Shown: positions 7,269 to 63,022, counted from the stretch's first letter. The stretch: DNA of 64,000 nucleotides from Bacteroidales bacterium (GCA_016285145.1 JAEEQE010000009.1:13304-77303), one strand, 5' to 3'. Made by a program: numbers and translations. Notes: generated by a model not told the origin, from the sequence alone.

Positions 7269-8642
7269 TTAGGCTTCGAACAGCAAACGGAACATCTCTT
7301 CCACCTTGACGATGGGGATGATGGTCAGCTGGAAGTCTTTGGGATTGAGGCCTTTCATGTTGTATTTGGAGATGAACATCCGTCGGAAGCCGAGTTTGTC
7401 GGCCTCGGCAATGCGCTGGACGATACGGGGCACGGGGCGCACCTCGCCGCTGAGGCCCATCTCGCCGGCGAAGCAGGTCTTGGCGTCGATGGCGATGTCG
7501 GTGGCTGAAGAGAGGATGGCCGCCACGATGGCCAGGTTGATGGCGGGGTCATCCACACGCACGCCGCCCGCGATGTTGAGGAACACGTCCTTGGCACCCA
7601 GTTTGAAGCGGCATCGTTTCTCCAACACCGCCAGCAGCATGTTCATGCGGCGGATGTCGTAGCCGGTGGCGGAACGCTGTGGCATACCATAGACCGCAGA
7701 GCTTACAAGTGCTTGTGTCTCAATCATCATGGGGCGGTTGCCCTCCATGATCGAGGCCACTGCATGTCCACTGTAGTCCTCCTCATGCTGCGAGAGCAGG
7801 ATCTCCGACGGGTTGTGGATTTCGTTGAGACCGGTCTGTGTCATCTCGAAGATGCCCATCTCGGAGGTGGATCCGAAGCGGTTCTTGATGCAACGCACAA
7901 TACGGTAACCATAATGCTGGTCGCCCTCGAACTGCAGCACCGTGTCCACGATGTGTTCCAGGATCTTGGGACCAGCCAGCGTGCCGTCCTTGGTGATATG
8001 CCCGATCAGGAAGACAGGGATGCCGCTGGTCTTGGCCAGATGCTGGAATTCGGCGGCGCACTCCTTGAGCTGGGAGATGGAACCGGCGGCGGAGTCCAGC
8101 AGGTTGCTCTGCATGGTCTGGATAGAGTCGGCAATGACCATGTCAGGTTTTAGCTCTTCGATGTGTTTGAATATCTGCGATGTGTCGGTTTCGGTGAGCA
8201 CGTAGCAGTGGGGTGCCGGCTGGTTTGAAAGGCGGGCGGCTCGCATTTTGAGCTGCGCTTCGCTCTCCTCTCCGGAGACGTACAGGATTTTGCAGTTCCG
8301 GATGTGCAGTGCCATCTGCAGCAGCAGGGTGGACTTGCCGATGCCGGGCTCGCCGCCCAGCAGGATGATGGAGCCGGCCACGATGCCGCCGCCTAACACG
8401 CGGTCGAACTCGGTGAATCCGGTGGACACGCGGGGCAGTTGCAGCAGCGACACCTCGTCAATGGGTTTGGGCGCGCTTTTGGCAACCACGGTGGTGGAAC
8501 GGCCTTTGGCAGGTGTCTCCTCCCGCTGCACGACCTCCTCCACGAATGTGTTCCACTCGCCGCACGACGGGCAGCGGCCGATCCATTGCGCCGACTGCGC
8601 CCCGCAGTTCTTGCAGAAATATTGGGTTTTGCTCTTTGCCAT
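7269..8642 (-). CDS. radA: DNA repair protein RadA
   Basis: N-terminal zinc finger CKNCGAQSAQWIGRCPSCGEWNTF, Walker A GGEPGIGKST, KNRFG motif and a Lon-like C-terminal domain. Confidence 0.95.
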   Translation of the reverse strand: MAKSKTQYFCKNCGAQSAQWIGRCPSCGEWNTFVEEVVQREETPAKGRSTTVVAKSAPKPIDEVSLLQLPRVSTGFTEFDRVLGGGIVAGSIILLGGEPGIGKSTLLLQMALHIRNCKILYVSGEESEAQLKMRAARLSNQPAPHCYVLTETDTSQIFKHIEELKPDMVIADSIQTMQSNLLDSAAGSISQLKECAAEFQHLAKTSGIPVFLIGHITKDGTLAGPKILEHIVDTVLQFEGDQHYGYRIVRCIKNRFGSTSEMGIFEMTQTGLNEIHNPSEILLSQHEEDYSGHAVASIMEGNRPMMIETQALVSSAVYGMPQRSATGYDIRRMNMLLAVLEKRCRFKLGAKDVFLNIAGGVRVDDPAINLAIVAAILSSATDIAIDAKTCFAGEMGLSGEVRPVPRIVQRIAEADKLGFRRMFISKYNMKGLNPKDFQLTIIPIVKVEEMFRLLFEA

Positions 8643-28798: not shown

Positions 28799-28926
28799 AA
28801 AAAAAAAGTCGGCCCAAGGGACCGACTTTTTCATTCGTAGCGGTAAAGACTACTCTTTGTCTCTGTATTCTTTCACGATGTCTTTGACCATGGCGGGAGC
28901 GAGACGTCCATACACCTTGCCGTCCA
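28799..28926. repeat. Direct repeat copy B: authentic terminator plus 3' end of the NuoE-like gene
   Basis: See copy A. Contains terminator hairpin GTCGG...CCGAC (28808-28826) flanked by A/T tracts. Confidence 0.9.
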
Positions 28927-29347
28927 CGAGGCAGACAGGTGCCAGACCGCAGGCGCCTACGCAGCGCAAAGAGGTGAGGGAGAAGATGCCTTTGGCATCG
29001 GTTTCGCCCACTTCCACGCCGAGTTCTTTCTTGAAGGCGTCCAAAATCTTCTCGCCACCACGCACGTAGCAAGCGGTACCCATACATACAGATACGGGAT
29101 ATTTGCCCTTCGGGGTCATGGTGAAGAATGCGTAGAAGGAAACCACACCGTAAACCTTGGCGGTCGGCATGTGCAGTCTTTCAGCAATCAACTCCTGGAC
29201 TTCTGCGGGCAGATAACCGAGGAAATCTTGTGTCTGATGTAAGACATTGATGAGTTCGCCAGGGTTGTTGTTGAAGTTATTGCAGATTTCAATAACTTTT
29301 TCCCTGACTTCGGGTTTCATTTTTATTATAATCTTCTTATTATCCAT
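28850..29347 (-). CDS. hydC: [FeFe]-hydrogenase NuoE-like [2Fe-2S] subunit (HydC-type)
   Basis: Thioredoxin-like [2Fe-2S] NuoE pattern (CMGTACYVRG..LRCVGACGLAPV). Last gene of the hydrogenase operon. Confidence 0.8.
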   Translation of the reverse strand: MDNKKIIIKMKPEVREKVIEICNNFNNNPGELINVLHQTQDFLGYLPAEVQELIAERLHMPTAKVYGVVSFYAFFTMTPKGKYPVSVCMGTACYVRGGEKILDAFKKELGVEVGETDAKGIFSLTSLRCVGACGLAPVCLVDGKVYGRLAPAMVKDIVKEYRDKE

Positions 29348-29369
29348 GTTTATGCTTTTTTCAGATTAA

Positions 29370-31157
29370 TTATTTGTTTAAATCCACTTCCACGGTGGTC
29401 TGTCTGTCGAAATAGTGCGTGTGCAGCAGTTCGTGAGACTTGTGACCGCAAGGTTCACCCAAGAACTCTTTGTAGATGGCCTGGATGGACGGGTTTTCGT
29501 GGGATTTACGGATCGGCATCTCTCTATCGGCGCGGTAGATAGCTTCCCAACGGGCCTTGATGATGTCGGCGTTTCCGTGGTGCAGCGGCTGGCCAGCGCC
29601 GTCGATACAACCACCAGGACAAGCCATGATCTCGATGGCGTGGAACTGGCACTTGCCGGCTTTGATGTCTTCCAGCAGCTTACGGGCGTTCTTCAGACCG
29701 TGGGCGATACCGATGTTCAGCTTCAAGCCGTCCACATCGATGGTGGCGCTACGAACGCCTTCCAAACCACGCAGCTCTTCGAAGTCAATCTTCGGAAGCG
29801 GTTTCTTGGTGATGACCTCGTAAGCGGTACGGACAGCGGCCTCAATCACACCACCCGTGGTACCGAAAATCACAGCAGCACCGGTGGATTGACCGAGCGG
29901 GCTGTCAAATTCAGCATCCGGCAGGGATTTGAAATCGATGTTGGCCATCTTGATGAGGCGTGCCAACTCGCGGGTGGAGATGGAGTAGTCCACATCAGGA
30001 TTGCCATTTACCTTGAACTCGTCACGGCCAACTTCATATTTCTTGGCCAAGCAAGGCATCACGGATACGCTGATCATATCTTCGCGTTTGATACCGATTT
30101 TTTCAGCAAAATAGGATTTGGCGATAGCACCGAACATCTGTTGCGGAGATTTTGCCGTGGAAGGAAGATCTCTCATTTCAGGGAACTGGTGCTCGAAGAA
30201 GTTCACCCATGCAGGGCAGCAGGAGGTGAGGATAGGAAGCGGAACGCTCTTGTCACCACCCAGATATTTGGTCAGACGGCCGATAAGCTCGGTGCCTTCT
30301 TCCATAATCGTCAAGTCGGCAGACCAGTCAGTGTCGAACACATAGTCGAAACCGAGGGCCTTGAGAGCGGCGGTCAGCTTGCCCGTGGCAATCGTGCCGG
30401 GTTCCATGCCGAACTCTTCGCCGATGGCCACACGCACAGCGGGAGCCACTTGGACAACCGTCTTCTTGTTCGGATCCACGATAGCGCGAAGCACTGCGCC
30501 GGTGTGGTCAACCTCGGTGAGAGCGCCCACCGGACAAACGGCAACGCACTGACCGCAGAAGGTACACGGTGAGTGATCCAGATGCTGGTTGAAAGCGGTG
30601 GAGACCACTGCCGGGAAACCACGCTCGATGGCGGACAAGGCGCCCACCGTCTGCATCTCATTACACATCGTCTCGCAACGACGGCACATGACGCACTTGT
30701 TCATGTCGCGGATGATGGACGGGGAAACCTCAATCTGATAGGAGGATTGGGAGTGCTCCGGTCCGATGAACGGGTTCTTGCGGATGCCGAAACGCACGGC
30801 GAGATCTTGCAATTCGCAGTTGCCGTTCTTGGCGCACTGCAGACAGTCGGCCGGGTGGTCGGAAAGGATCAGCTCGAGAACGGTTCTACGGGCGTTGATG
30901 ACGCGCATGGAGTTGGTTCTCACCACCATGTCGGGCATACACTCGGTGACACAGGCAGGAGCCAGGTTACGACGACCGGCCACTTCCACCACACAAATAC
31001 GGCATCCGCCGGGTCTGTTGTGCACGCCTAAATTGTTCAGCTCGAAATGGCAAAGGGTAGGAATATCGATACCCATGCCTTGAGCGGCTTTCAGAATAGT
31101 AGTACCTTTCGGCACTTCAACTTCTCTATTGTCTATTGTTAATTTTATCATATCCAT
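29370..31157 (-). CDS. hydA: [FeFe]-hydrogenase catalytic subunit (group A3-type, multimeric)
   Basis: H-cluster motifs TSCCPAW, MPCLAKKYE and EIMACPGGCIDGAGQP. N-terminal 2Fe-2S and 4Fe-4S ferredoxin modules (CRICVVEV; CVMCRRCETMC; CTFCGQCVAVCP). Confidence 0.9.
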   Translation of the reverse strand: MDMIKLTIDNREVEVPKGTTILKAAQGMGIDIPTLCHFELNNLGVHNRPGGCRICVVEVAGRRNLAPACVTECMPDMVVRTNSMRVINARRTVLELILSDHPADCLQCAKNGNCELQDLAVRFGIRKNPFIGPEHSQSSYQIEVSPSIIRDMNKCVMCRRCETMCNEMQTVGALSAIERGFPAVVSTAFNQHLDHSPCTFCGQCVAVCPVGALTEVDHTGAVLRAIVDPNKKTVVQVAPAVRVAIGEEFGMEPGTIATGKLTAALKALGFDYVFDTDWSADLTIMEEGTELIGRLTKYLGGDKSVPLPILTSCCPAWVNFFEHQFPEMRDLPSTAKSPQQMFGAIAKSYFAEKIGIKREDMISVSVMPCLAKKYEVGRDEFKVNGNPDVDYSISTRELARLIKMANIDFKSLPDAEFDSPLGQSTGAAVIFGTTGGVIEAAVRTAYEVITKKPLPKIDFEELRGLEGVRSATIDVDGLKLNIGIAHGLKNARKLLEDIKAGKCQFHAIEIMACPGGCIDGAGQPLHHGNADIIKARWEAIYRADREMPIRKSHENPSIQAIYKEFLGEPCGHKSHELLHTHYFDRQTTVEVDLNK

Positions 31158-31172
31158 ATTAATACCCTTTTA

Positions 31173-32966
31173 CTATTTAATACTAATTGCGTTAAACTTA
31201 CATTTCTCAATACAGGTACCGCACTTGATACAGAGTTCTTGGTTGATTTCGTGCGGCATCTTCACTGTACCCTTGATGGCACCGACCGGACAGTTGCGGG
31301 CGCAAGCCGTACAACCTTTACACTTGTCAGGATCGATGACGTATTGTTTCAGGGCCTTGCACTGGCCGGCGGGACATTTCTTGTCCACCACGTGTGCCAC
31401 ATACTCGTCCCAGAAGTTGTCGATGGTGGACAACACCGGGTTCGGGGAAGTCTGGCCGAGGCCGCAGAGGGCGGTGTCTTTGATGACGTGTGCCAAGTTG
31501 CGGAGCTTCTCGAGGTCTTCCATGGTGCCTTGGCCCTTGGTGATCTTGTCGAGGATTTCGCACAGACGCTTGTTGCCGATACGGCAGGGTGAGCACTTGC
31601 CGCAGGACTCTTCCACGGTGAAGTCGAGATAGAACTTGGCCACGGAAACCATACAGGAGGTCTCGTCCATGACGATCATACCACCGGAACCCATCATGGA
31701 ACCGGCAGCCACGAGGTTGTCATAGTCGATCGGGGTGTCGAGGAACTTCTCGGTCAAGCAACCGCCGGAAGGACCACCGGTTTGAACGGCTTTGAATTTC
31801 TTGCCGCCCTTGATACCGCCGCCGATTTCGTAGATGACCTCACGCAGGGTGATGCCCATCGGGACCTCGATCAAACCGACGTTGTTGATTTGGCCGGCCA
31901 ATGCGAACACTTTCGTACCTTTGGATTTCTCGGTTCCAATGGAGGAGAACCATTCCCAACCCTTGTTGATGATAACAGGAATGTTAGCGTAGGTTTCCAC
32001 GTTGTTCACGTTGGACGGTTTCTTGAGATAACCTTCAACGGCCGGGAATGGCGGTTTGAAGGTGGGTTCGCCGCGGAGACCTTCCATGGAGTGGATCAGA
32101 GCGGTTTCCTCGCCGCAGACGAATGCGCCGGCACCGTAGCGGAGGATGATGTCGAAATCGAAGCCGGTTCCGAAGATGTCCTTGCCGAGCAGGCCGTATT
32201 CGCGGGCCTGGTTGATGGCCACCTGCAGACGGTGGATAGCCAGCGGGTATTCAGCACGGATATAGACCAAACCGATGGTGGCACCGATACAGAAACCGCC
32301 GATGGCCATTGCCTCGATGATGGAGTGCGGGTCGCCTTCCAAGATGGAACGATCCATGAATGCACCCGGGTCGCCTTCGTCGGCGTTGCAGATGATGTAT
32401 TTCTGGTCAGCGGCGTTCTTGGCGCAGAGTTCCCATTTCAAACCTGTGGGGAAGCCAGCGCCGCCACGGCCACGCAAACCGGATTTCTTGATGAGGTCGA
32501 TGGTGGCTTTGGGGTCGTTCTGTTCCAGAACGGAGGCCAATGCCTTGTAACCGTCACGTGCGATGTATTCGTCGATGTTTTCAGGATCGATGAAACCGCA
32601 GTTACGCAACGCGATACGCATCTGTTTCTTGTAAAAACCCATGTGCTTGGAGTCGGAAATGTGTTTCTGATCCTCCGGGTTTTCGTACAGCAGGCGCTGC
32701 ACTTTTCTACCTTTGATGATGTGCTCGTCGATGATCTCGCGGCAGTCTTCCGGTTTTACCTGTGTGTAGAACGTGTTGTCGGGCAGGATCTTGACGATGG
32801 GGCCCTTCTCACAGAAACCGAAACAGCCGGTGGTGACCACTTGCACGTCGTCGGTAAGGTTCTTTTCAGCCAGTAATTGGATGAAGTTTTCTTTGATTTT
32901 CGGGCTTTCGGAAGCGGTACATCCAGTACCACCGCAAAGCAGAATGTGATATTTGTAATTTGCCAT
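31173..32966 (-). CDS. hydB: NuoF-like NAD(P)H-binding flavoprotein subunit of the hydrogenase (HydB-type)
   Basis: GLRGRGGAGFPTGLKW FMN/NADH motif, ESCGKCSPCR N3-cluster motif and two C-terminal 4Fe-4S motifs (CKGCTACARNCP; CIKCGTCIEKC). Confidence 0.9.
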   Translation of the reverse strand: MANYKYHILLCGGTGCTASESPKIKENFIQLLAEKNLTDDVQVVTTGCFGFCEKGPIVKILPDNTFYTQVKPEDCREIIDEHIIKGRKVQRLLYENPEDQKHISDSKHMGFYKKQMRIALRNCGFIDPENIDEYIARDGYKALASVLEQNDPKATIDLIKKSGLRGRGGAGFPTGLKWELCAKNAADQKYIICNADEGDPGAFMDRSILEGDPHSIIEAMAIGGFCIGATIGLVYIRAEYPLAIHRLQVAINQAREYGLLGKDIFGTGFDFDIILRYGAGAFVCGEETALIHSMEGLRGEPTFKPPFPAVEGYLKKPSNVNNVETYANIPVIINKGWEWFSSIGTEKSKGTKVFALAGQINNVGLIEVPMGITLREVIYEIGGGIKGGKKFKAVQTGGPSGGCLTEKFLDTPIDYDNLVAAGSMMGSGGMIVMDETSCMVSVAKFYLDFTVEESCGKCSPCRIGNKRLCEILDKITKGQGTMEDLEKLRNLAHVIKDTALCGLGQTSPNPVLSTIDNFWDEYVAHVVDKKCPAGQCKALKQYVIDPDKCKGCTACARNCPVGAIKGTVKMPHEINQELCIKCGTCIEKCKFNAISIK

Positions 32967-32980
32967 TGGAGACCTCCTTG

Positions 32981-33379
32981 TTATTTGTTATCGATTTTTT
33001 CGTAGTTGACGGGGATGACGCCTTCGAGGATTTCACCACTCATGATGTATTTCGTCACCAGTTCTTGACCTTTCTTGGTGTCAACGTGGCCGAACACGAT
33101 GGGATCCTCGCCCGGTTTCTTCACTTCCACGGTGGGCTCGGCATAGCAGTAGCCCATGCAGCCGGTCTGGGAAACCACAGCCTTGACGCTTTGCTTCTTG
33201 CACTCGTCAATGATGGCTTCCATCGTTTGCTTAGCACCGGAAGCGATACCGCAGGTGGCCATAGCAACCTTGATTTGAACCAAGTTTTCTACGTTGTCGC
33301 CTTCTTCGCGCAACTCAATTTTGGATTGGAGCTCTTCTCTCTTTTTCTTGAGATCAGCCAATGATTTAATTTTTTCCAT
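32981..33379 (-). CDS. Small thioredoxin-like [2Fe-2S] ferredoxin (HydD-like accessory subunit)
   Basis: 132 aa with Cys pattern ATCGIASG...GCMGYCYAEP. First gene of the hydrogenase operon. Confidence 0.65.
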   Translation of the reverse strand: MEKIKSLADLKKKREELQSKIELREEGDNVENLVQIKVAMATCGIASGAKQTMEAIIDECKKQSVKAVVSQTGCMGYCYAEPTVEVKKPGEDPIVFGHVDTKKGQELVTKYIMSGEILEGVIPVNYEKIDNK

Positions 33380-37336: not shown

Positions 37337-37756
37337 TTATAGGTTGTCGTGGTGCGGTTGGACGGTCAGCTTGAGGTCGCTCTTCATTTCGGAAGTCGAT
37401 AAAATCCTGTTCAAGGTGTCGTACAGTCCGTTTTCCCTCCCGTCGATGTCTTCCACGGTGATACGGTAGCCTCTGGAGCCATCTAAGAAACAGGTGGCAT
37501 TGTCGCTGAATCTGCCGTTGTTGTCCGTGGTGTCGGCGAAGTTGATGTCCGGAATGGCGACCCGCATGCCTTCCACCGGCGTGCCGCTCACCGCATCAGT
37601 GACGGTTCCCTGAACGGAAATCTCACTGTAGTAATCCTGTGACGGCATCCCGTAGCAGGCTTGGAAAGTGAACATTAGGGCCGTGGCCGAGAACGATCCG
37701 AAAAGGAATCGCAGCACTTGCTGCTTTTTTTCTTTGATTTTTTGAACGATTTTCAT
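37337..37756 (-). CDS. Small lipoprotein, paralog of the radical-SAM-associated lipoprotein at 61320..61742
   Basis: MKIVQKIKEKKQQVLRFLFGSFSATALMFTFQACYG is near-identical to the N-terminus of ORF 61320..61742. Shared downstream motifs are G.VTDA...PVEG, DTTDN.G.F.D, ENGLY and L.LTV. The start was moved to ATG 37756, just downstream of a -7 box. Confidence 0.75.
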   Translation of the reverse strand: MKIVQKIKEKKQQVLRFLFGSFSATALMFTFQACYGMPSQDYYSEISVQGTVTDAVSGTPVEGMRVAIPDINFADTTDNNGRFSDNATCFLDGSRGYRITVEDIDGRENGLYDTLNRILSTSEMKSDLKLTVQPHHDNL

Positions 37757-54955: not shown

Positions 54956-56521
54956 CTATTCGTCCGAGAAACTCTTGGTGGCGGTTATCGCGGTTTTGAG
55001 GCCATCGATGGCGGCGCTCATGATGCCGCCGGCATAACCGGCACCTTCGCCTATCGGGTAAATTCCCTTGACGGTGCATTGTCGGTCATCGCCACGTAGG
55101 ATGCGTACAGGCGAGGACGAACGGGTTTCCACACCGGTCAGGACCGCATCTGGGTCGGCAAAGCCATGCATTTTGTGGTCAAAGAGAGGCAGGGCCTCGT
55201 GGAGGGCGTGCACCACATAATCGGGCAGACAGCGGTTGAGGTCGCAAAAGACGATGCCGTGCGGATAGGAAGGTTGTACGCTGCGGTGGCCCGTGGCGAT
55301 GCGTTGTCGCAAAAACTCGCCCACAAGATTGCCGGGTGCGCGGTAGTCGCCGGCCACGTCAAAGGCCATACGTTCGTATTTCTCCTGATACAGCAGACCA
55401 TCCAGTGGATTATCCACATAATAGTCCTCCGGGGTCACGTTGACCAGCAAGGCGCTATTGGCGTTGGTCTTGTCGCGGAGGCGTTCGCTCATGCCATTGG
55501 TGACGATGGTGTGCGGCTCGCTGGCGGAAGCCATCACGGTGCCGCCGGGGCACATGCAGAAAGTATAGACGCTACGCTCTTTCAGGTGCACCACGCCCTT
55601 GTAGGATGCCGGTGGCAACAATCTGGCGGCGGCACCGTACTGCATCTTGTTGACACGTTGCTGGAGATGCTCGATGCGCACTCCCATGGAGAAAGGCTTG
55701 GGCTCCATCTGCAATCCATGGGCGTGCATCTGCCGGATGGTGTCCCGCGCTGAATGCCCCAACCCCAATAGAAGATGTTGTGTGTCAATGGGAGTCGGCG
55801 GGTCACAAACCAGTTGCAGATGGTCGCCCTCCTGCCGGAAGTCCAAAAAGGTGGTGTTGAAATGGAACTCTCCACCCAATGATTCTATTTCTAGCCGGAT
55901 GTTGCGGACCACTTTCTCCAAATAGTCGGTGCCCACATGCGGATTCTGCATATAAGTGACATCCTCATTGGCTCCATGTTTGTAAAACTCTTTGAGGATA
56001 AAGGTGTTGTATTCGCTGTGGACGTTAGTATTCAGTTTCCCGTCGGAGAAGGTGCCGGCACCGCCTTCGCCGAACTGCACGTTGGAATGGGCCTTCAGCA
56101 TTTTATGATTCAGGAAATCCGTCACGGATTTTTTACGTTCTTCAATCTTCTCGCCGCGTTCAAGGATGATGGGACGGGCTTGGCAGCGGGCGAGGTATAG
56201 GGCCGCGAACATTCCGGAGGGCCCAAAGCCGACTACAACAGGCCTGTGTGTGCCGCGCCATCGGGGGTAGTCAACCTCTATGGGTGGCTGCCATGCGGAT
56301 ACACCCGCTTGATTCATAAGGTGTTGATATTGATCGGGCAACGTGACCAATACTTGGTAATCGAAGAACACGTGGTCCCGCTTGCGAGCATCTGTGGCCT
56401 TCCGCACAATCCGAAAGTCGTTCAAGTCTTCCGCCCGTATGCCGAATTGCCGGACTATCGCATCCTCCAACCCGTTTTTACTGCCGACGGGAATCCGTAT
56501 GTTCGAGAGTTTTATTTGCAT
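54956..56521 (-). CDS. FAD-dependent oxidoreductase (COG2509-like uncharacterised dehydrogenase)
   Basis: Dinucleotide fold VVVGFGPSGMFAALYLA, C-terminal GIYPIGEGAGYAGGIMSAAIDG, and the N-terminal KRDHVFFDYQV beta-domain typical of this family. Confidence 0.7.
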   Translation of the reverse strand: MQIKLSNIRIPVGSKNGLEDAIVRQFGIRAEDLNDFRIVRKATDARKRDHVFFDYQVLVTLPDQYQHLMNQAGVSAWQPPIEVDYPRWRGTHRPVVVGFGPSGMFAALYLARCQARPIILERGEKIEERKKSVTDFLNHKMLKAHSNVQFGEGGAGTFSDGKLNTNVHSEYNTFILKEFYKHGANEDVTYMQNPHVGTDYLEKVVRNIRLEIESLGGEFHFNTTFLDFRQEGDHLQLVCDPPTPIDTQHLLLGLGHSARDTIRQMHAHGLQMEPKPFSMGVRIEHLQQRVNKMQYGAAARLLPPASYKGVVHLKERSVYTFCMCPGGTVMASASEPHTIVTNGMSERLRDKTNANSALLVNVTPEDYYVDNPLDGLLYQEKYERMAFDVAGDYRAPGNLVGEFLRQRIATGHRSVQPSYPHGIVFCDLNRCLPDYVVHALHEALPLFDHKMHGFADPDAVLTGVETRSSSPVRILRGDDRQCTVKGIYPIGEGAGYAGGIMSAAIDGLKTAITATKSFSDE

Positions 56522-57678
56522 GAAAATTCTAATGTTTTGTAAATGTTTCGGATGTGCGGTTCGTAAATCATCAGCACCACAATGTCGGGATTCACTTGTC
56601 GTATGATGTCGTAATTAGCTCCGTATTGCCATGCGTCGAAAATGAAAAGCGACTCATGGAAGTAGGGCGAGACAAATGGGATGATGTTGTTGCAATAAGA
56701 GTCTCGGATAAACAGAATCTTTGGATGGTCGGTGCGGTTGGTACGGAATTGTTTCTCATACGCGTCCGGGTAGGCAAACCCTTCAGTTGGGGTGAAATCC
56801 TGTTTGGTATCCTCTATAGAGGTAAAACCAAGAGTATCCGTGTAAAGTACGCTATATTCCTGATCTGCACGATATTTTGGCGAATTTCCCCGTATGGAGA
56901 TCCAAGAATAAAGATTGCCGCCGTCATAAACGTAAGGGCTAAGATAAAAATCCTGACAAATGGTTGTAGGCAGCATGGGATAATTCTTGGAGAGTGTATT
57001 CAGGATTTTTTCAGCACTATATTGAGCCGCAAGCATGTTCCAATGGTTGTCGTTTTTGCGGTAAAGCAACGTGTCCCCCTTATGCTTGAGCAGTGTGGAT
57101 TTGAGGTAGGTGAGAGGAACCTCTGGCGCCCGATCGCGCATCACCCTGCAAAATATATCTGTGGCCGTTTCTGGAGCTCGTTGCATGTAGGGCGGCAGGT
57201 ATTCCGGATGAATCTCATACGATGTGGGAGCGAGAAAAACGTAGTAACGGATGCCCATCTTCTGAAGAGTGTCGAAACGCCGTGCCAGCTCATCTGCCAC
57301 AATGGCCATCTGCTCCACTGTAAACTCCAATTTCCCTTCGAAAAGTTCTTTCTCTTCTTTACCACTGAAAAGGAAATCCTCTTTGCCGATAACAACGGAC
57401 TGCGTGGGCGACTGTTGGTTGAACATGGCGTAGAGGAAGTAAGCATCCAAAAAACGGTCGCGGAAAGGGAAATGGTCGTTGAAATAGTAGTCGAACTGGG
57501 CTGGGAATTTGTCCAAACGGGCCGGATTCAGGGATGGGAAAGAAGCCAAGGTCCTGTTCTCCCGTTGACTTTCTGTGGCATGACCACGTTGGCATATCAA
57601 CCAGAAAGCCGGGATGGTCAACATTCCCACGAAGAGAATGACAGTAAGAATAATATAGGGGTTTTGGCGCTCTTTCAT
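56512..57678 (-). CDS. AlgJ/AlgX-like SGNH-type accessory protein of the adjacent MBOAT
   Basis: N-terminal TM anchor, ENRTLASFP motif and DNHWN motif (KNDNHWNMLAAQY). Confidence 0.65.
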   Translation of the reverse strand: MKERQNPYIILTVILFVGMLTIPAFWLICQRGHATESQRENRTLASFPSLNPARLDKFPAQFDYYFNDHFPFRDRFLDAYFLYAMFNQQSPTQSVVIGKEDFLFSGKEEKELFEGKLEFTVEQMAIVADELARRFDTLQKMGIRYYVFLAPTSYEIHPEYLPPYMQRAPETATDIFCRVMRDRAPEVPLTYLKSTLLKHKGDTLLYRKNDNHWNMLAAQYSAEKILNTLSKNYPMLPTTICQDFYLSPYVYDGGNLYSWISIRGNSPKYRADQEYSVLYTDTLGFTSIEDTKQDFTPTEGFAYPDAYEKQFRTNRTDHPKILFIRDSYCNNIIPFVSPYFHESLFIFDAWQYGANYDIIRQVNPDIVVLMIYEPHIRNIYKTLEFSCK

Positions 57679-57680
57679 GG

Positions 57681-59117
57681 TTAGAATCGGAAATAGATGA
57701 AGGGATTATAACTGCCTGCCAACAGAAAACTGCTTACTGTCAGCAGCAGGAGTGCGATGGCGACGATTGTTCCGATATGCAGCAAATGCCAAAGAAGTTT
57801 GTTGCCTCTGGCGATGGCTGTCTGAATGACTTCATGAAAGCGGGCGAACAGCGGAGTGCATCCAACTACGCCTACAATGGTGAATAGGATGAACGAAGGC
57901 TGAAGGTATTGCTGCAAGAAAAGGCCGCTGCCTGAGCCGCCAGCGAAGGCGAACATCTGCCGCACATAGTGCAGCGCGTAGATGATTCCGTCGGCTCGGA
58001 AGAAAACCCAGGCTATGATCACCACAAACAATGCATACAGATGTTGCACAGACTTGAAGAGTTTACCCAAAATGCGGTCGAAACCGATGCGTTCCAGCAC
58101 CATGAAGGAGCCGTGAAGGAGTCCCCAAACGACAAAGGTCCAGTTGGCTCCATGCCAGAGACCTGTGAGGAAGAATACGATGTAAAGATTGAGGAAGGTG
58201 CGCTTTTCACCCTTTCGGTTTCCACCCAACGGGATGTAAAGATAATCCTTGAACCAGGCCGAGAGCGTGATGTGCCAGCGCCGCCAGAAATCACGGATGG
58301 AAGTGGCGAGGTATGGAAAATTGAAGTTCTCGGGGAACCGGAACCCGAACATCCGTCCCAATCCAATGGCCATGTCGGAATAGCCGGCGAAGTCGTGGTA
58401 GATTTGCAGCGAGTAGCAAAGAGCGCCAATCCAAAGCGCCCACCATGGCATGGTTTCCGGTGCGCGTGCGAAAATGCTATCGGCAATGATGGCCATTTGA
58501 TTTGCAATGAAAACCTTACGTGCCAATCCAATGCAGAAGCGCCGAATGCCCTCATACATGTTCCCGAAACTGAAATCACGGTTCGAAAGTTGCGGCTCGA
58601 TTTCATGGTAGCGAATGATAGGACCGGCTATAAGCTGCGGGAACAAGGCGATATAGGTGCCCAACTTGATGATATTGGCCTGCGCCTTTGCTTGACCCCG
58701 ATATACGTCCACCAGATAGGAGATGCCTTGAAAGGTGTAGAAGGAGATGCCGATGGGCAGGACTATGTTTCGAAGCGTGAAGGGTGAAATGCCGAACACA
58801 CCACCCAAGATGTTGAAGTTGTCCACCAGGAAGTTGGCGTATTTGAAGAATGCCAGTGCCGACAAATCCAATACAATGGCAAGGGAAAGCCACCATTTCC
58901 GATGCCTTTCACGACGAGCAATGAGCCGTCCTCCAACATAATTTACCAATATGGAGGCGAGAAGAATCAGGGTATATGTAACCCCGCCCCACGCGTAAAA
59001 AAGGATACTCGCAAAAAACAGGAGAGTGTTCTGATAGGGTACCCGCCGACATATTGCCAGCAGGCAGATAACAACAGGGAGAAATAGGAATAAGAAGGTC
59101 AGCGAGCTGAAAATCAT
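57681..59117 (-). CDS. MBOAT family O-acyltransferase (AlgI-like), copy 2
   Basis: MIFSSLTFLFLFLPV start, FWRRWHITLSAWFKDYLYIPLGGNR and the conserved His in GLWHGANW. Confidence 0.85.
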   Translation of the reverse strand: MIFSSLTFLFLFLPVVICLLAICRRVPYQNTLLFFASILFYAWGGVTYTLILLASILVNYVGGRLIARRERHRKWWLSLAIVLDLSALAFFKYANFLVDNFNILGGVFGISPFTLRNIVLPIGISFYTFQGISYLVDVYRGQAKAQANIIKLGTYIALFPQLIAGPIIRYHEIEPQLSNRDFSFGNMYEGIRRFCIGLARKVFIANQMAIIADSIFARAPETMPWWALWIGALCYSLQIYHDFAGYSDMAIGLGRMFGFRFPENFNFPYLATSIRDFWRRWHITLSAWFKDYLYIPLGGNRKGEKRTFLNLYIVFFLTGLWHGANWTFVVWGLLHGSFMVLERIGFDRILGKLFKSVQHLYALFVVIIAWVFFRADGIIYALHYVRQMFAFAGGSGSGLFLQQYLQPSFILFTIVGVVGCTPLFARFHEVIQTAIARGNKLLWHLLHIGTIVAIALLLLTVSSFLLAGSYNPFIYFRF

Positions 59118-60274: not shown

Positions 60275-61333
60275 TTAAAACTTCCAACAGCGCATGATAT
60301 TCTGTCCTTGGCTTTCCCGCAGGTGCATGGCTCCGCCTAAACATTGCCGGTAGTCGGAGCAGTGGGCACAGGGACCGCGGCGCATCCATTCCCGATCGCG
60401 CATAATCTGGAAACGATTGTTCCAAACCTCCATAAGGTCATCATGGTATATGTTTCCTTGCACGAATGATCGGTTGATATTGGGGCACGCGGAGATGTCT
60501 CCGTTGATGAGCACGGAGCCGATATTGATGCCAGCACGGCAGAAGAAGTAGCTGTCGCGGACGCTCTCTTCGTATTTTCCTGTGTAGGCTTCGCAGCTGA
60601 ACTTGAGGTCGATTTTCCCTTCTCGGCGTGTGTTGGCGATGAAAAGGAACAAGGATTCTACCTGTGTGCGGGTGAGTTGCAGCTCGTGGTCGCGGGCGGC
60701 ACGTCCGATGGGGGCGATGGTGAACAGCCGCCAGTGCCGGATGCCGTTGGCGATGAGCACCTCCTTGAGAGCTGGAAGTTCCGCCAGATTTCGTTGGTGA
60801 ACGCAGGTTACCACGTCGTAAGTTAGTTGCGGTGCGCTGGCAATGAGTCTCAAAGCCCGCAAGGCCCGCCGAAAACTCTCGGGATGCTGTCGCAGCCAAT
60901 TGTGCGTCTCCTCCAGACCATCAAGACTCACCGTTACAGAGCCCATACCCGCCGCCAAAAGCTCTTTATGGCGAGCTTCGTCGTATAACATGCCGTTAGT
61001 GACGATTCCCCATTGGAAGCCATGCTGGCGCAACGCACGCCCGCAGTCGGCCAAGTCTTTGCGCAACAACGGCTCGCCACCCGTAATGGCAATGATGGTG
61101 GTGTTGCGCGGATAGCGTTTCTCCAAAGGCTTTATGGCATTGAGAAAGTCGTCAAAGGGCATGTCTTGGACACACGCTTCGGCCTTGCAGTCGCTACCGC
61201 AATGCCGGCACGACAGATTGCACCGCCAGGTACATTCCCAAAACAAATAGTTCAGTTCGTGAATTTCTGTCTCATTACGACGAAAGACCCGAAACAGCCA
61301 TCTCTTGAAAGGGTTTCGCCTATTCGTCTTCAT
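60275..61333 (-). CDS. Radical SAM enzyme with C-terminal SPASM domain
   Basis: CNLSCRHC is the CX3CX2C motif, with GGEPLL downstream. SPASM cysteines lie in CRAG...CPNI...GPCAHCSDYRQC. It overlaps the upstream lipoprotein gene by 14 nt. Confidence 0.85.
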   Translation of the reverse strand: MKTNRRNPFKRWLFRVFRRNETEIHELNYLFWECTWRCNLSCRHCGSDCKAEACVQDMPFDDFLNAIKPLEKRYPRNTTIIAITGGEPLLRKDLADCGRALRQHGFQWGIVTNGMLYDEARHKELLAAGMGSVTVSLDGLEETHNWLRQHPESFRRALRALRLIASAPQLTYDVVTCVHQRNLAELPALKEVLIANGIRHWRLFTIAPIGRAARDHELQLTRTQVESLFLFIANTRREGKIDLKFSCEAYTGKYEESVRDSYFFCRAGINIGSVLINGDISACPNINRSFVQGNIYHDDLMEVWNNRFQIMRDREWMRRGPCAHCSDYRQCLGGAMHLRESQGQNIMRCWKF

Positions 61334-61742
61334 GAACCCGGTTAACTGTCAGCTGTATGGGTGAATGCAGGTCTTCGAATGAAAGCGTGGTGGTCTTCGA
61401 CTCATACAGGCCATGTTCTGTGCTGTCGGTATCCCATAGATAGACATGGTAAGTGTCGAACCATAGAATGTACTTGGGGTTAGCATCTCCGAAGGAGCCA
61501 GTGTTGTCGGTCGTGTCTATTATGCCCTCCGGCACTCCTTCTCCAAAACCAATGGCGATACCTTCCACGGGCTCTTGGGTTTCGGCATCTGTGACAACGC
61601 CAAAAATCTGGACTTCCTCTTCGAAAGTCGGCGGCCCATAGCAAGCCTGGAAGGTAAACATCAGAGCGGTGGCGGAGAACGAGCCGAACAAGAACCGGAT
61701 CAGCTGTTGCTTTTTCTCTTTGATTTTCTGAATGAGCTTCAT
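61320..61742 (-). CDS. Small lipoprotein translationally coupled to the radical SAM/SPASM gene (carboxypeptidase-regulatory-like fold suspected)
   Basis: MKLIQKIKEKKQQLIRFLFGSFSATALMFTFQACYG (lipobox FQAC), then GVVTDAETQEPVEG, reminiscent of CarboxypepD_reg. Paralog at 37337..37756. Confidence 0.75.
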   Translation of the reverse strand: MKLIQKIKEKKQQLIRFLFGSFSATALMFTFQACYGPPTFEEEVQIFGVVTDAETQEPVEGIAIGFGEGVPEGIIDTTDNTGSFGDANPKYILWFDTYHVYLWDTDSTEHGLYESKTTTLSFEDLHSPIQLTVNRVHEDE

Positions 61743-61771: not shown

Positions 61772-62977
61772 CTATTCGTGCGCATAGACTGGTAGCGGCT
61801 GGTCGATGACTTCGTGCCAGGGCAGTCCGTAGCCGCCAATTTCCTTCATGAAGGGATCCGGATCGAACTGTTCCACGTTGAACACGCCCGTGCCTTTCCA
61901 GGTGCCGGTGAGGATCATCTTGGCGCAGAGCATGGCGGGCACGCCCGTGGTGTACGAAACGGCCTGTGCTCCAATCTCTTTGAAACATTCGGCGTGGTCG
62001 CAGTTGTTGTACACATAGTAGGTGCGCTCTTTCCCGTCTTTTATACCTTTGATTTGGCAGCCGATGGATGTCTGTCCGTGGTAGCCTTCGCCCAAGGAAG
62101 AGGGCTCTGGCAATACGGCTTTCAGGAATTGCAGCGGCACGATGTCGATACCTTGGTATTTAATGGGTTTTATGCTGGTCATGCCGATTTCCTGCAGCAC
62201 GTTGAGCACGGTGATGTATTTCTGGCCGAAAGTCATCCAGAAGCGGGCGCGCTTGATGGAAGGATAGCTGCGCACCAGCGATTCCAGTTCCTCGTGGTAG
62301 AGCAGGTAGGATTCGCGTTCGCCGATGTTGGGGTATTCCACGGGGCGGTGGATCGACATCGGGTCAATCTCAATCCATTGGCCGTTCTCCCAGTATTTGC
62401 CGCGTTGGGTGATCTCGCGGATGTTAATCTCGGGATTGAAATTGGTGGCGAAGGCCTTGCCGTGGTCGCCGGCGTTGCAGTCCACGATGTCGAGATAGTG
62501 GATTTCATCGAAATAGTGCTTGGCGGCGTAGGCAGTGTAGATGCTGGTCACGCCCGGGTCGAAGCCGCAGCCGAGCAATGCCATGATGCCGGCCTCTTTG
62601 AAGCGGTCCTGGTAGGCCCACTGCCAGCTGTACTCGAATTTGGCCTTGTCGCGGGGCTCGTAGTTGGCCGTGTCCATGTAGTTGGTTTTCGTTGCCAAAC
62701 AGGCATCCATGAGCGGAAGGTCCTGGTAGGGCAGGGCCACGTTGATCAGCAGGTCGGGTTTGTAGCTTTCGATCAGGCGGATGGTTTCCTCCACATTGTC
62801 GGCATCCACCTGCGCGGTCTGGATGCGGTTGCCTCCGATTTCGGCTGCGATCTTGTCGCATTTGGATTTGGTGCGGGAGGCGAGCATGATTTCCGTGAAG
62901 ACTTCCGGTACGGAAGCGCATTTGTGGGCTACTACGGCTCCTACGCCGCCGGCCCCGATGATGAGAACTTTTGCCAT
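61772..62977 (-). CDS. Carboxynorspermidine/carboxyspermidine dehydrogenase (saccharopine dehydrogenase family)
   Basis: MAKVLIIGAGGVGAVVAHKCA Rossmann motif, GCGFDPGVTS, about 400 aa, typical of the Bacteroidales alternative spermidine pathway enzyme. Confidence 0.8.
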   Translation of the reverse strand: MAKVLIIGAGGVGAVVAHKCASVPEVFTEIMLASRTKSKCDKIAAEIGGNRIQTAQVDADNVEETIRLIESYKPDLLINVALPYQDLPLMDACLATKTNYMDTANYEPRDKAKFEYSWQWAYQDRFKEAGIMALLGCGFDPGVTSIYTAYAAKHYFDEIHYLDIVDCNAGDHGKAFATNFNPEINIREITQRGKYWENGQWIEIDPMSIHRPVEYPNIGERESYLLYHEELESLVRSYPSIKRARFWMTFGQKYITVLNVLQEIGMTSIKPIKYQGIDIVPLQFLKAVLPEPSSLGEGYHGQTSIGCQIKGIKDGKERTYYVYNNCDHAECFKEIGAQAVSYTTGVPAMLCAKMILTGTWKGTGVFNVEQFDPDPFMKEIGGYGLPWHEVIDQPLPVYAHE

Positions 62978-63014: not shown

Positions 63015-63022
63015 CAAAGATA
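63015..63022 (-). promoter_or_regulatory. -7 promoter box (TATCTTTG on minus strand) for the dehydrogenase-lipoprotein-rSAM transcription unit
   Basis: Exact TAnnTTTG, 38 nt upstream of ATG 62977. Confidence 0.5.

Follow-up and report, generated by a model that had tools for sequence, protein, structure and literature searches.

A gene for a radical S-adenosylmethionine (SAM)/SPASM enzyme and an overlapping gene for a small pre-lipoprotein, found in a 64,000-nucleotide stretch of a Bacteroidales genome (the window), may form a self-contained cassette in which the enzyme modifies an X-Tyr-Gly motif of the pre-lipoprotein, with the excision of tyramine as the candidate chemistry. We consider this the best explanation of the data and hold it with slightly less than even confidence. 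Its parts differ in strength. A functional link between the enzyme and the small protein is nearly certain. The small proteins are probably the substrates of the enzyme, and the X-Tyr-Gly motif is, by a modest preference, the likely site of modification. Tyramine splicing, suggested by analogy with characterized enzymes, is a tentative assignment that we would not yet call likely.

The enzyme and pre-lipoprotein genes overlap

The enzyme gene (positions 60275 to 61333, minus strand) encodes a protein of 352 amino acids. Upstream of it lies the reading frame of a 140-amino-acid pre-lipoprotein, copy A (61320 to 61742, minus strand), which appears to be translationally coupled to the enzyme gene: the two overlap by 14 nt (61320 to 61333, minus strand), and the shared sequence, ATGAAGACGAATAG on the coding strand, contains both the start codon of the enzyme gene and the stop codon of copy A. 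Overlaps of 14, 11, 4, or approximately 0 nt between the small gene and the enzyme gene were found repeatedly at related loci. Both reading frames and their overlap had been described in a sequence-only reading of the window and are present on the minus strand as described; translation verified FQAC (residues 31 to 34 of copy A) and, in the enzyme, both CNLSCRHC and the SPASM motif.

Co-transcription of the pair from a box at position 63015, also proposed in that reading, is plausible. A Bacteroidetes-type –7 box, TATCTTTG, is located at 63015 to 63022 on the minus strand, upstream of a carboxynorspermidine-synthase-like gene, and is a putative promoter driving the synthase-like gene together with copy A and the enzyme gene. 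It was identified by consensus match only; between 59000 and 63400 the minus strand has two TAnnTTTG boxes, this one and another (60244 to 60237) upstream of rfbB. Scans for sigma-70 promoters and terminators gave counts at the level of shuffled sequence and were uninformative, and an Rfam scan of the whole window detected no RNA elements.

The enzyme is a member of the TIGR04133 family

The enzyme scored 476.8 bits against TIGR04133 (rSAM_w_lipo; E = 3.4e-143, cutoff of 425), in an alignment covering model positions 9 to 344 of 350, and this was the sole NCBIfam model whose cutoff it passed. Its Pfam matches were Radical_SAM (61.3 bits) and SPASM (30.4 bits vs. 21.5), and the radical SAM and SPASM family matches far exceed chance. 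Its profile score makes the enzyme a true member of TIGR04133; its identity across the Bacteroidales ranges from 63% to 91%. On the AhbD, NirJ, MftC, PqqE, and PlpX-type models it scored between 78 and 119 bits, against cutoffs of 265 to 725. Membership in AhbD/NirJ (105 to 119 bits, cutoffs of 500 to 515, with no tetrapyrrole genes conserved nearby) was rejected, as was membership in MftC or PqqE, where scores fell far under the cutoffs. The profile searches thus placed the enzyme in TIGR04133 alone and in no characterized family with an unlinked substrate, anaerobic sulfatase maturase (anSME) being remote. The earlier statement that characterized SPASM enzymes act on peptides or proteins proved too broad, because AhbD, NirJ, BlsE, and Tes occur among this enzyme's own matches.

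TIGR04133 and its partner TIGR04134 (lipo_with_rSAM) are hypothetical equivalogs in NCBIfam that are described as an "rSAM/lipoprotein system" with no function assigned. A partial literature search found no paper on either family; the single match arose from a misprint in which the T9SS type-B CTD was meant. The sequence-only reading, which had mentioned such a pairing with no assigned function, was therefore right on this point.

The radical SAM cluster motif, CX3CX2C, reads CNLSCRHC (residues 38 to 45; 61199 to 61222, minus strand), and none of C38, C42, and C45 varies among 94 homologues. The SPASM region, as placed by alignments, comprises residues 247 to 349 (60287 to 60595, minus strand) and contains seven Cys residues (C247, C265, C283, C322, C325, C331, and C349), among them those of a CX12GX4C element (C265..G278..C283) and of GPCAHCSDYRQC at residues 320 to 331; the assignment of these Cys to individual clusters comes from motif alignment only. 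A full SPASM domain had been claimed for the enzyme. The domain is indeed present, but the fourth Cys of CX2CX5CX3C is absent from it: aligned to CLSCGLLKICEGGC of SuiB, the enzyme reads CX2CX5C-LGG-A335, with Ala at the fourth position. The residue is Gly in enzymes of the class-2 branch (see below), and this Cys is missing throughout the TIGR04133 family, leaving seven rather than eight Cys in the SPASM region. Three Cys outside the clusters (C49, C97, and C177) are also invariant.

When an AF2 model of the enzyme (pLDDT of 86.5) was searched with Foldseek, the top structures by E-value were SuiB, SkfB, BlsE, and PqqE, with EpeE structures among the fold hits, and the top full-length TM score (0.68) belonged to anSME. 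The enzyme has no detectable RRE (PqqD-like) domain, as Pfam gives Radical_SAM and SPASM only and the cluster motif begins at residue 38. Since no RRE is fused to the enzyme or conserved alongside it, we rejected the RRE-dependent RiPP maturase type (sacti- and ranthisynthases, PqqE/PqqD, and MftC/MftB).

The gene pair is conserved across the Bacteroidales

The pairing held up in a gene-neighborhood census: the enzyme and the small protein were encoded together at 75 of 80 species-level loci, and two of the five loci lacking the pair lie at contig ends and could not be judged. The pair was co-oriented, often with overlap, at 63 loci and divergent (head-to-head) at 12, where the motif is still kept. 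Searching from the small-protein side also confirmed the pairing. One metagenome-assembled genome (MAG; locus L003) has lost the small gene and retains an intact enzyme gene, and no partner gene was seen at locus L036.

ORF clustering within 8 kb on either side of the 80 loci revealed no conserved third gene, the next most common family occurring at no more than nine. No peptidase, exporter, RRE, or sulfatase partner was conserved in these neighborhoods, which bears out the absence of a sulfatase, peptidase, or exporter noted previously in the window. The flanking polyamine gene and rfbB/MBOAT cluster, to which that reading had drawn attention, are truly syntenic, but only locally and without functional signal; polyamine, rfbB, MBOAT, and AlgX-like genes are common to only four to seven close relatives, and we rejected them as parts of the system.

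Several loci carry more than one small gene. Two copies are present at each of L041 and L052, additional "mini" genes occur at L035, L089, and L090, and at L087 three YG-bearing lipoprotein genes, of which one contains two MYGP sites, surround a single enzyme gene. Several small genes per enzyme are more readily reconciled with a substrate than with a 1:1 subunit. The earlier proposal that the lipoprotein is a substrate or partner of the enzyme is thus supported by the family scores and the conserved pairing, and of these two roles we infer that of substrate.

The small pre-lipoproteins share an X-Tyr-Gly motif

Copy A scored 31.0 bits against TIGR04134 (E = 2.2e-7), under the cutoff of 39.8, and on this score is best described as a divergent relative of that family. 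An HMM scan of the window detected exactly two small-protein copies and one radical SAM enzyme. The second small protein, copy B (139 amino acids; 37337 to 37756, minus strand), is unlinked, with the nearest radical SAM gene 24 kb away; it has the same leader and passes the TIGR04134 cutoff with 40.7 bits. For annotation, this means that TIGR04134 at its present cutoff overlooks the enzyme-coupled copy A and names the unlinked copy B. Neither copy B nor the X-Tyr-Gly motif had been noted in the sequence-only reading. The two copies are 46% identical overall, and 33 of their first 36 residues are identical. Their first 38 codons differ by 17 synonymous and five non-synonymous (conservative) changes, and the number of synonymous differences rules out gene conversion as the source of the shared leader. 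The orphan synteny of copy B recurs on a 180-kb contig.

The small proteins (96 homologues of copy A) include a class 1, to which copy A belongs, and a class 2 with canonical lipoboxes, and an HMM built from class-1 proteins retrieved class-2 members with E-values of 1e-8 to 1e-17. TIGR04134 is built on the class-2 branch, which it scores at 108 to 127 bits; class 1 scores low (31 bits), and the divergent-orientation and minimal forms are missed entirely. The copy A lipobox fits a PROSITE PS51257-style pattern with Cys34 as the lipobox Cys, and 65 of 71 complete family members fit it likewise. An AF2 model of copy A (pLDDT of 81) predicts a helix over residues 2 to 35 followed by a beta-sandwich (residues 41 to 133) of a transthyretin/CnaB/CarboxypepD_reg-like fold, and the mature domain bears a semi-conserved DxDxxxNGxY loop. 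Minimal variants of 62 to 81 amino acids have no beta-sandwich and keep the leader, the YG, and the coupling to the enzyme gene.

From the alignments, X-Y-G is the sole universal element of the small proteins. Y-G is kept in each variant inspected (class 1, class 2, minimal, and mini), at a distance of 0 to 14 residues from the lipobox Cys among HMM-detected members: it follows directly in class 1 (C34-Y35-G36 in copy A) and 5 to 14 residues on in class 2. The residue X is C in class 1, E, M, or K in class 2, and M in the minis. In copy A, the proposed modification site, X-Tyr-Gly(-x-Pro), consists of C34 and Y35-G36-P37-P38 (61629 to 61640, minus strand, for Y35 to P38). Copy A thus reads C-Y-G-P-P and copy B C-Y-G-M-P; Pro at position +3 of the motif is frequent, not universal. 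Each small protein has a Cys upstream of YG, and several class-2 members have an extra Cys just ahead of it (MCEYG, GCAKYG, and ICMYG). A conserved YG beside a lipobox could instead reflect a role in lipoprotein sorting or folding.

Invariant alignment columns mark residues 1 to 34 of copy A, which comprise its signal peptide and lipobox and end in RFLFGSFSATALMFTFQAC (61641 to 61742, minus strand). Mean pairwise identity among class-1 proteins was 51% in the signal region vs. 29% in the mature part, and the signal region was the more conserved of the two in 97% of class-1 pairs; conservation of the class-2 signal peptide does not exceed that of the mature part. All synonymous codons are in use at the invariant leader residues, and a conserved nucleotide element is therefore ruled out as the cause of the conservation. 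This pattern indicates that the class-1 signal peptide is under protein-level selection. A leader-only search of 1.84e9 proteins found the small-protein family alone and the leader on no other protein family, a match to a 469-amino-acid repeat protein being judged a chance hit. The copy A signal peptide is accordingly a candidate enzyme-binding helix. Because signal peptides of the ordinary kind are found on the mini lipoproteins, the class-1 leader is not the sole recognition element.

The enzyme is related to, and separate from, the spliceases

The spliceases PlpX and PcpX are radical SAM-SPASM enzymes that act on XYG motifs (MYG and LYG), and their natural core sequences include PIRPLYGLPI and AVAAMYGVVFP. 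Non-cyanobacterial splicease systems are binary, with a leader helix that binds and activates the enzyme. A TIGR04133-family profile gave 114 bits for PcpX and 85 bits for PlpX, compared with 67 bits for the best solved SPASM/Twitch structure and 29 to 41 bits for anSME, SuiB, and PqqE, and BLASTP aligned the window enzyme to PlpX with 24% identity over 309 residues (E = 1e-20). By these scores, PlpX and PcpX are the closest characterized peptide-modifying relatives among those compared. The enzyme nevertheless falls outside the splicease clade, as a related but separate family: it scored 111.9 bits on TIGR04103 (cutoff of 725) and 109.7 bits on TIGR03913, no higher than on AhbD, NirJ2, MftC, and TIGR04053, whereas PcpX scored 728.7, 342, and 125 bits on TIGR04103, TIGR03913, and TIGR04133, respectively. 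Judging from OCR-derived sequence, the fourth SPASM Cys, missing in the TIGR04133 family, seems to be retained in PlpX and PcpX.

DISCUSSION

Proposed mechanism and its alternatives

We propose that a cytoplasmic TIGR04133 enzyme modifies small pre-lipoproteins ahead of Sec export and lipidation. The window genome would supply two substrates, one coupled to the enzyme gene and the other 24 kb away, and the target would be the invariant X-Tyr-Gly(-x-Pro). The alpha-helical signal peptide just upstream of this motif most likely doubles as an enzyme-binding or enzyme-activating helix, a dual role that would account for conservation far above the needs of export. The leading candidate reaction is a splicease-type removal of a tyramine equivalent (C8H9NO, –135.06 Da). 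The Cys thiol and amine would stay free after such an excision, leaving the way open for normal lipidation with diacylglyceryl and cleavage by signal peptidase II. What would result is a lipid-anchored protein of the envelope or, from the minimal variants, a lipopeptide, with an electrophilic ketoamide group. This group is an established pharmacophore of protease inhibitors, and the products may perhaps be envelope-tethered inhibitors of this kind. The most specific form of this proposal, in which TIGR04133 is a new, lipoprotein-dedicated branch of tyramine spliceases that converts the lipidated Cys of class 1, is activated by the signal peptide, and yields ketoamide products, we consider rather unlikely as a whole.

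A serious but less probable contender keeps the same pair and the same region and invokes other radical chemistry: thioether formation, epimerization of Tyr or Gly, a Tyr cross-link (cyclophane), or Cβ oxidation. In its thioether variant, a sactionine- or ranthionine-type bond would be made from the neighboring Cys, and the substrate Cys would coordinate auxiliary cluster I at an open site. The seven SPASM-region Cys, with Ala or Gly in place of the cluster-I ligand of CX2CX5CX3C, are compatible with this, since AlbA and CteB are classic seven-Cys, open-site sactisynthases and the substrate Cys of CteB binds cluster I; so are the Cys that lies 0 to 14 residues upstream of YG in all HMM-detected substrates and the extra Cys of the MCEYG, GCAKYG, and ICMYG members, while C49, C97, or C177 could donate H atoms, as in epimerases. 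Use of the lipobox Cys in a thioether would block lipidation, however, yet the class-2 lipoboxes are canonical. Where Cys and Tyr are adjacent, as in class 1, the resulting ring would be very small; class-2 and mini substrates mostly contain only one Cys, placed at varying distances; and the precursor is not rich in Cys and there is no RRE domain. For any Cys-centered chemistry, the variation of X (C, E, M, or K) beside a fixed Y-G is a better fit to XYG splicing. We therefore downgraded a Cys-Tyr thioether as first choice, given the variable X, the canonical class-2 lipoboxes, and the tiny class-1 ring.

It is improbable that the enzyme acts instead on a small molecule (a tetrapyrrole-like cofactor, sugar nucleotide, or lipid) and that the lipoprotein binds, carries, or uses the product or anchors the enzyme to the membrane through its N-terminal helix. 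AhbD, NirJ, and NirJ2 are among the nearest non-self NCBIfam models, the best solved-structure sequence matches are the small-molecule enzymes BlsE and the lipid synthase Tes, and a generic transthyretin-like sandwich with its semi-conserved DxDxxxNGxY loop could bind a ligand. Against this, the 62- to 81-amino-acid variants without a sandwich keep the leader, YG, and enzyme coupling, conservation is concentrated where a cytoplasmic enzyme could reach before export, cofactor or lipid genes do not co-occur in the 80 neighborhoods, and a stable complex of an exported lipoprotein with a cytoplasmic Fe-S enzyme would be impossible after export. An anSME-like activity, whether formation of formylglycine from the lipobox Cys (or another residue) or some other reaction of the sulfatase-maturase type, is very improbable despite a shared architecture (approximately 350 amino acids, a radical SAM core plus SPASM, and no RRE) and the best full-length TM score: the PDB match is remote (E = 8e-7 with the family profile), anSME is absent among the best 25 NCBIfam matches, copy A has C-Y-G-P-P and no C/S-x-P/A-x-R motif, no sulfatase occurs in the 80 neighborhoods, and anSME has eight ligating Cys rather than seven. 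That the genes are neighbors by chance or mere synteny would agree with the local nature of the polyamine, rfbB, and MBOAT context and with the one MAG that lacks the small gene. We give this reading almost no weight, as it is effectively refuted by the 80-locus census: enzymes as little as 51% identical still have the small gene beside them, in either relative orientation and in otherwise unrelated surroundings, with start and stop codons that overlap, and curated NCBIfam models were built on the pairing.

If modification of X-Y-G in pre-lipoproteins by tyramine excision is correct, the products would be the first RiPP-lipoprotein hybrids made by radical SAM enzymes, in anaerobic gut and rumen Bacteroidales, and backbone β-amino-acid/ketoamide formation would reach beyond secreted peptides to envelope lipoproteins. 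Radical SAM enzymes would join the lipoprotein-pathway RiPPs that have recently been described, a signal peptide would prove to be an enzyme recognition or activation element, and compact two-component splice tags might become usable in protein engineering. A different modification would still be the first chemistry given to the TIGR04133/TIGR04134 family. In either case, the sole universal feature of the partner, X-Y-G, gives an orphan family a hypothesis that can be tested directly and, because X-Y-G is a known splicease target, the test is concrete and cheap.

Comparison with known systems

The pair most directly resembles the NCBIfam rSAM/lipoprotein system, as the enzyme passes TIGR04133 and a TIGR04134-homologous partner lies immediately upstream in a member of the Bacteroidota. 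It differs from the TIGR04134-type system in that the coupled copy A is of class 1, with the lipobox fused to Y-G and a near-invariant signal peptide, and in that the genome has an unlinked second copy, itself above the cutoff. With anSME/AtsB the enzyme shares its size, domain order, lack of an RRE, and best full-length structural superposition, as well as, in the proposed mode, action before translocation on a protein bound for export, for which anSME is a precedent. It is unlike anSME/AtsB in being remote in sequence, in the absence of a sulfatase and of CxPxR, and in having one cluster-I Cys ligand fewer. The seven-Cys SPASM region is like that of AlbA and CteB and suggests that auxiliary cluster I is left with a free coordination site, to which a substrate Cys could bind; unlike those enzymes, the TIGR04133 member has no N-terminal RRE, and the single Cys of its precursor doubles as the lipobox Cys. 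CteB was not among the sequence matches of the enzyme.

Bufferins, made by MNIO enzymes, and DAG-RiPPs, made by the MNIOs ChrH/DybH (PNAS 2026), derive from signal-peptide-bearing precursors that are modified in the cytoplasm and then exported; the DAG-RiPPs and some bufferins also receive a diacylglyceryl lipid, and the bufferin signal peptide is suspected to form part of the sequence that is recognized. By analogy, these systems offer a precedent for cytoplasmic modification of the pre-lipoproteins described here. The likeness extends to a Sec or lipoprotein signal peptide in place of a classical leader, to minimal clusters of precursor and enzyme, and to the prominence of Bacteroidota. MNIOs, however, are multinuclear non-heme iron oxidases that act on Cys motifs with oxygen present, whereas the TIGR04133 system combines an oxygen-sensitive radical SAM enzyme, in anaerobes, with a conserved Tyr-Gly site. 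We rejected DAG-RiPP or bufferin membership: the signal peptide and lipobox are present, but the enzyme is a radical SAM protein and not an MNIO. The text of the DAG-RiPP paper (PNAS 2026) nowhere mentions radical SAM enzymes.

The spliceotide systems (PlpX/PcpX and RhaX/RcsX/RasX) differ from the TIGR04133 system in having eight rather than seven SPASM Cys and in the Nif11/NHLP leader peptides of their precursors, where the TIGR04133 partners are Sec/signal peptidase II lipoproteins. In class 1 of the latter, X is the lipidated Cys itself, and there is mostly one site per protein and, in most members, a folded beta-sandwich domain. The two share a radical SAM and SPASM enzyme encoded next to an X-Tyr-Gly precursor, hydrophobic residues or Pro after the motif, and several sites in some precursors. 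Like the non-cyanobacterial spliceotide systems, the TIGR04133 system is binary and has no RRE protein; no Y protein gene is conserved nearby, and the helix predicted directly N-terminal of X-Y-G in copy A is the signal peptide.

Identification of the gene pair

Both genes were found on the minus strand where the sequence-only reading had placed them, the radical SAM gene at 60275..61333 (352 aa) and the small lipoprotein gene, here called copy A, at 61320..61742 (140 aa). The two overlap by 14 nt (ATGAAGACGAATAG), and this stretch contains both the start codon of the radical SAM gene and the stop codon of the small gene. Translation confirmed CNLSCRHC at residues 38-45 and GPCAHCSDYRQC at residues 320-331 of the enzyme, as well as FQAC at residues 31-34 of the small protein. 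In profile searches, with matches well past what chance would give, the enzyme matched TIGR04133 ("rSAM_w_lipo") at 476.8 bits (cutoff 425, E = 3.4e-143) and carried the Pfam domains Radical_SAM and SPASM, while copy A matched TIGR04134 ("lipo_with_rSAM") at 31.0 bits (E = 2.2e-7), below the cutoff of 39.8. These models are the curated rSAM/lipoprotein pairing named in the sequence-only reading. The pair is already catalogued in them without a function, the window enzyme being an ordinary TIGR04133 member, and a literature search on TIGR04133 and TIGR04134 found no paper for either family. The public gene call for the enzyme (protein P0098) is 295 aa long, which implies a start at Met58 and would drop the CX3CX2C motif. 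Because homologues span the full 352 aa, the long form is correct.

Conservation and genomic context of the pair

We scanned one genome per species with an alignment of the enzyme, which returned 231 relatives, and kept 80 loci (91-51% identity). Nearly all came from Bacteroidota MAGs from rumen, horse and termite guts, and sediments; across Bacteroidales, the enzyme is 63-91% identical. Carriers that can be cultivated include a Prolixibacteraceae or Sunxiuqinia strain and the Porphyromonadaceae COT-184 isolate. With an HMM of the small protein, a partner was found adjoining the enzyme in 75 of the 80 loci, 63 of them upstream on the same strand, where overlaps of 14, 11 or 4 nt are common, and 12 head-to-head. 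A reverse census from the small-protein side agreed. Two of the five loci without an HMM match lie at contig ends. A third, L036, has unrelated genes upstream of the enzyme, and L068 encodes a divergent lipoprotein whose EYGP and AYGT motifs lie well away from the Cys. In the last, L003, a rumen MAG locus with an intact enzyme 91% identical to ours, an internal deletion of ~300 nt reduced the small gene to a 27-codon remnant at 7868-8000; the deletion could reflect true gene loss or faulty assembly, or an unlinked copy could compensate for it. We regard a functional link between enzyme and small lipoprotein as almost certain, and the chance that their adjacency is meaningless as negligible.

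Complete pairs also occurred on contigs binned outside the Bacteroidota, namely L041, L042 and L048 (Treponema/Spirochaetia, termite gut) and L066 (Bacillales UBA5732), which points to horizontal transfer or binning errors.

When all ORFs within ±8 kb were clustered across the 80 loci, no third conserved gene was found, the next family occurring in at most 9. The window's own neighbours (a carboxynorspermidine-synthase-like gene, rfbB, an MBOAT gene and an AlgX/DHHW-like gene) are common to only four to seven close relatives. We conclude that the rSAM/lipoprotein module stands on its own and that the genes around it offer no clue to its role. The gene at 61772-62977 (minus), read earlier as a polyamine gene, is a relative with the saccharopine-dehydrogenase fold, while its orthology is unconfirmed at 421 bits against the cutoff of 800 for the carboxynorspermidine synthase model. 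On the minus strand between 59000 and 63400, Bacteroidetes-type TAnnTTTG boxes matching the consensus were present only at 63022-63015, upstream of this synthase-like gene, and at 60244-60237, upstream of rfbB. The former would fit co-transcription of the synthase-like gene, copy A and the enzyme gene. Downstream of rfbB, the region 56512-59117 (minus) encodes the MBOAT protein (DltB/AlgI-like, 478 aa) and then the AlgX/DHHW-like SGNH protein (388 aa); these resemble an O-acylation pair of the polysaccharide or teichoic type and are unrelated to the rSAM module. Elsewhere in the window, successive genes at 28850-33379 (minus) have N-termini that are NuoE-like, [FeFe]-hydrogenase-like and NuoF-like. 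This run resembles an electron-bifurcating hydrogenase, in keeping with a strict anaerobe, and the corresponding place in the related locus L084 has an annotated Complex1_51K/2Fe-2S protein.

The small lipoproteins and their conserved leader

AlphaFold2 predicted copy A to consist of a helix (residues 2-35) and a transthyretin/CnaB/CarboxypepD_reg-like beta-sandwich (41-133), and the protein matches a PS51257-style lipobox pattern. The signal peptide is its best-conserved portion. Across 92 homologues, the leader consensus KKQQLxRFLFGSFSATALMFTFQACYG[MP]P is invariant or nearly so, whereas the mature domain is just ~30-50% identical. Every synonymous codon occurs at the invariant leader positions, which places selection on the leader at the protein level. 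When 1.84 billion representative proteins were searched with the leader alone, this leader, which defines class 1 below, was found in the small-lipoprotein family only.

The window holds a second, unlinked small lipoprotein gene, copy B (37337-37756, minus; 139 aa), flanked by truB/uppP on one side and by a PASTA protein gene and a T9SS cargo gene on the other, with the nearest rSAM gene 24 kb off. Copy B has the same leader as copy A and a C-Y-G-M-P motif; the two proteins are 46% identical overall, and 33 of their first 36 residues are identical. Their first 38 codons differ by 17 synonymous and 5 conservative substitutions, which argues for purifying selection on the leader rather than gene conversion. 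At 40.7 bits, copy B clears the TIGR04134 cutoff that the coupled copy A misses. A 180-kb metagenomic contig shows the orphan arrangement too and seems to carry a coupled copy as well.

Partners fall into two leader classes that, for the most part, track the enzyme tree. In class 1, to which the window's proteins belong, the lipobox is fused straight to Y-G (FQAC-YG), and mean pairwise identity is 0.51 in the signal region against 0.29 in the mature part, the former being more conserved in 97% of pairs. In class 2, a canonical lipobox (LLAILGFATAC) is followed 5-14 residues on by (E/M)YG(T/M/V)P. TIGR04134 derives from class 2, whose members score 108-127 bits, and leaves most of class 1 undetected. 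Minimal variants of 62-81 aa, such as the L015 and P0095 types, are reduced to the leader, C-Y-G-P-P and an acidic tail, and those with known flanks are still coupled to the enzyme. One sub-lineage also has mini lipoprotein genes (76-81 aa; L087 1421-1657 and 2784-3023, L035 7384-7614, L089 86-331, L090 67-312), whose products have ordinary signal peptides and carry (L/V)MYGP.P once or twice, and which cluster around the enzyme or class-1 gene; the order in L087 is a mini with two MYGP sites, the enzyme, a second mini and a class-1 protein. These minis look like additional precursors. A semi-conserved sandwich loop, D-x-D-x-x-x-N/H-G-x-Y/F (DTDSTEHGLY at residues 104-113 of copy A; 61398-61430, minus), resembles a Ca2+-binding DxDxxG-type loop; it is found too in copy B and class-2 proteins and is missing from the divergent-orientation clade.

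The sole feature universal to all partners is X-Tyr-Gly near the lipobox Cys, with C, E, M or K at X and usually a Pro two residues after the Gly. The presence of several YG-bearing genes per enzyme, together with the sandwich-less variants, favours an enzyme-substrate relation over a fixed complex. We consider that the small lipoproteins are probably substrates of the enzyme, and we lean slightly toward X-Y-G as the modification site. The earlier proposal of a substrate or partner is supported, with the caveats discussed below. The same multiplicity of genes and the sandwich-less variants speak against a ligand-carrier role, and we think it unlikely that the enzyme acts on a small molecule for which the lipoprotein is the user or anchor. 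Since radical SAM enzymes are cytoplasmic Fe-S proteins, any modification must precede Sec export, the established logic for anSME with sulfatases.

Candidate chemistry of the enzyme

No N-terminal RRE domain was found in the enzyme. Its AlphaFold2 model (pLDDT 86.5) resembles SuiB, SkfB, BlsE and PqqE, with the top full-length TM score for anSME (0.68). The SPASM region holds seven Cys (247, 265, 283, 322, 325, 331 and 349) that are invariant or nearly so, and its CX12GX4C is intact, while the CX2CX5CX3C region reads C-AH-C-SDYRQ-C-LGG-A, with Ala at the fourth Cys position; in the other TIGR04133 branch this position is Gly. We take the fourth Cys to be a ligand of auxiliary cluster I, as in the anSME structure, and infer from the alignment that the enzyme lacks this ligand. 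A 7-Cys SPASM pattern has been discussed for AlbA and CteB, in which an open site on cluster I binds a substrate Cys.

X-Y-G is the defining target of the tyramine spliceases, the rSAM-SPASM enzymes PlpX, PcpX, RhaX, RcsX and RasX, which excise C8H9NO (-135.06 Da). In the natural splicease cores PIRPLYGLPI and AVAAMYGVVFP, X-Y-G is followed by hydrophobic residues or Pro; non-cyanobacterial systems are binary, with a leader helix that binds and activates the enzyme. Scott et al. (2022) mined rSAM-SPASM genes with YG-rich neighbours, and their set of 939 predicted splicease systems may therefore already list TIGR04133.

The sequences of PlpX and PcpX were read by OCR from published supplementary material, and single residues may be wrong. 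The OCR-derived PcpX scored 728.7 bits against TIGR04103, which identifies that model as the splicease family. On TIGR04133, PlpX and PcpX reached 103-125 bits, level with AhbD, TIGR04053 and NirJ2. They scored 322-342 bits on the sister model TIGR03913 ('GDL motif peptide-associated radical SAM/SPASM maturase'), well above any family but their own, so TIGR03913 may be another splicease type. The window enzyme is 24% identical to PlpX over 309 residues (BLASTP, E = 1e-20). Family-profile scores, computed at equal database size, were 114 bits for PcpX, 85 for PlpX, 67 for BlsE (the best solved structure), 41 for PqqE, 31.5 for anSME and 28.7 for SuiB. By these scores, the spliceases are the nearest experimentally characterised peptide-modifying relatives among those tested. 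TIGR04133 is nevertheless a branch separate from them, and sequence similarity by itself does not set spliceases apart from AhbD or NirJ. Chemistry of the anSME type is, in our judgement, very improbable.

Tyramine splicing is a possible chemistry for TIGR04133, which we put forward tentatively. Splicing at C-Y-G would leave the Cys thiol and amine intact and would thus be compatible with processing by Lgt and LspA. Several observations weigh against splicing. The enzyme falls outside the splicease clade, and the conserved leader is absent from the minis. Some partners have no Pro at +3, the signal peptides of class 2 show no excess of conservation over the mature parts, and L003 is without its small gene. 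Other radical chemistry at the X-Y-G site is only slightly less likely than splicing. A thioether or Cys-anchored mechanism stays in play because a cluster-I Cys is missing and a substrate Cys is close by, but a thioether that consumes the Cys of C-Y-G is incompatible with Lgt/LspA processing.

Comparison with known systems

The class-1 partner subclass, the unlinked second copy and the putative minimal and mini substrates appear to be new, as do the family-wide 7-Cys SPASM pattern and the X-Y-G link to spliceases. Like the spliceotide systems, the family pairs an rSAM-SPASM enzyme with candidate precursors that carry X-Y-G, although it forms a separate branch. With bufferins and with the DAG-RiPPs, the latter matured by the lipoprotein pathway, for both of which cytoplasmic modification before export was described recently, it would share modification of a signal-peptide precursor before export. 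We propose that the system may combine spliceotide-like chemistry with the logic of lipoprotein-pathway RiPPs.
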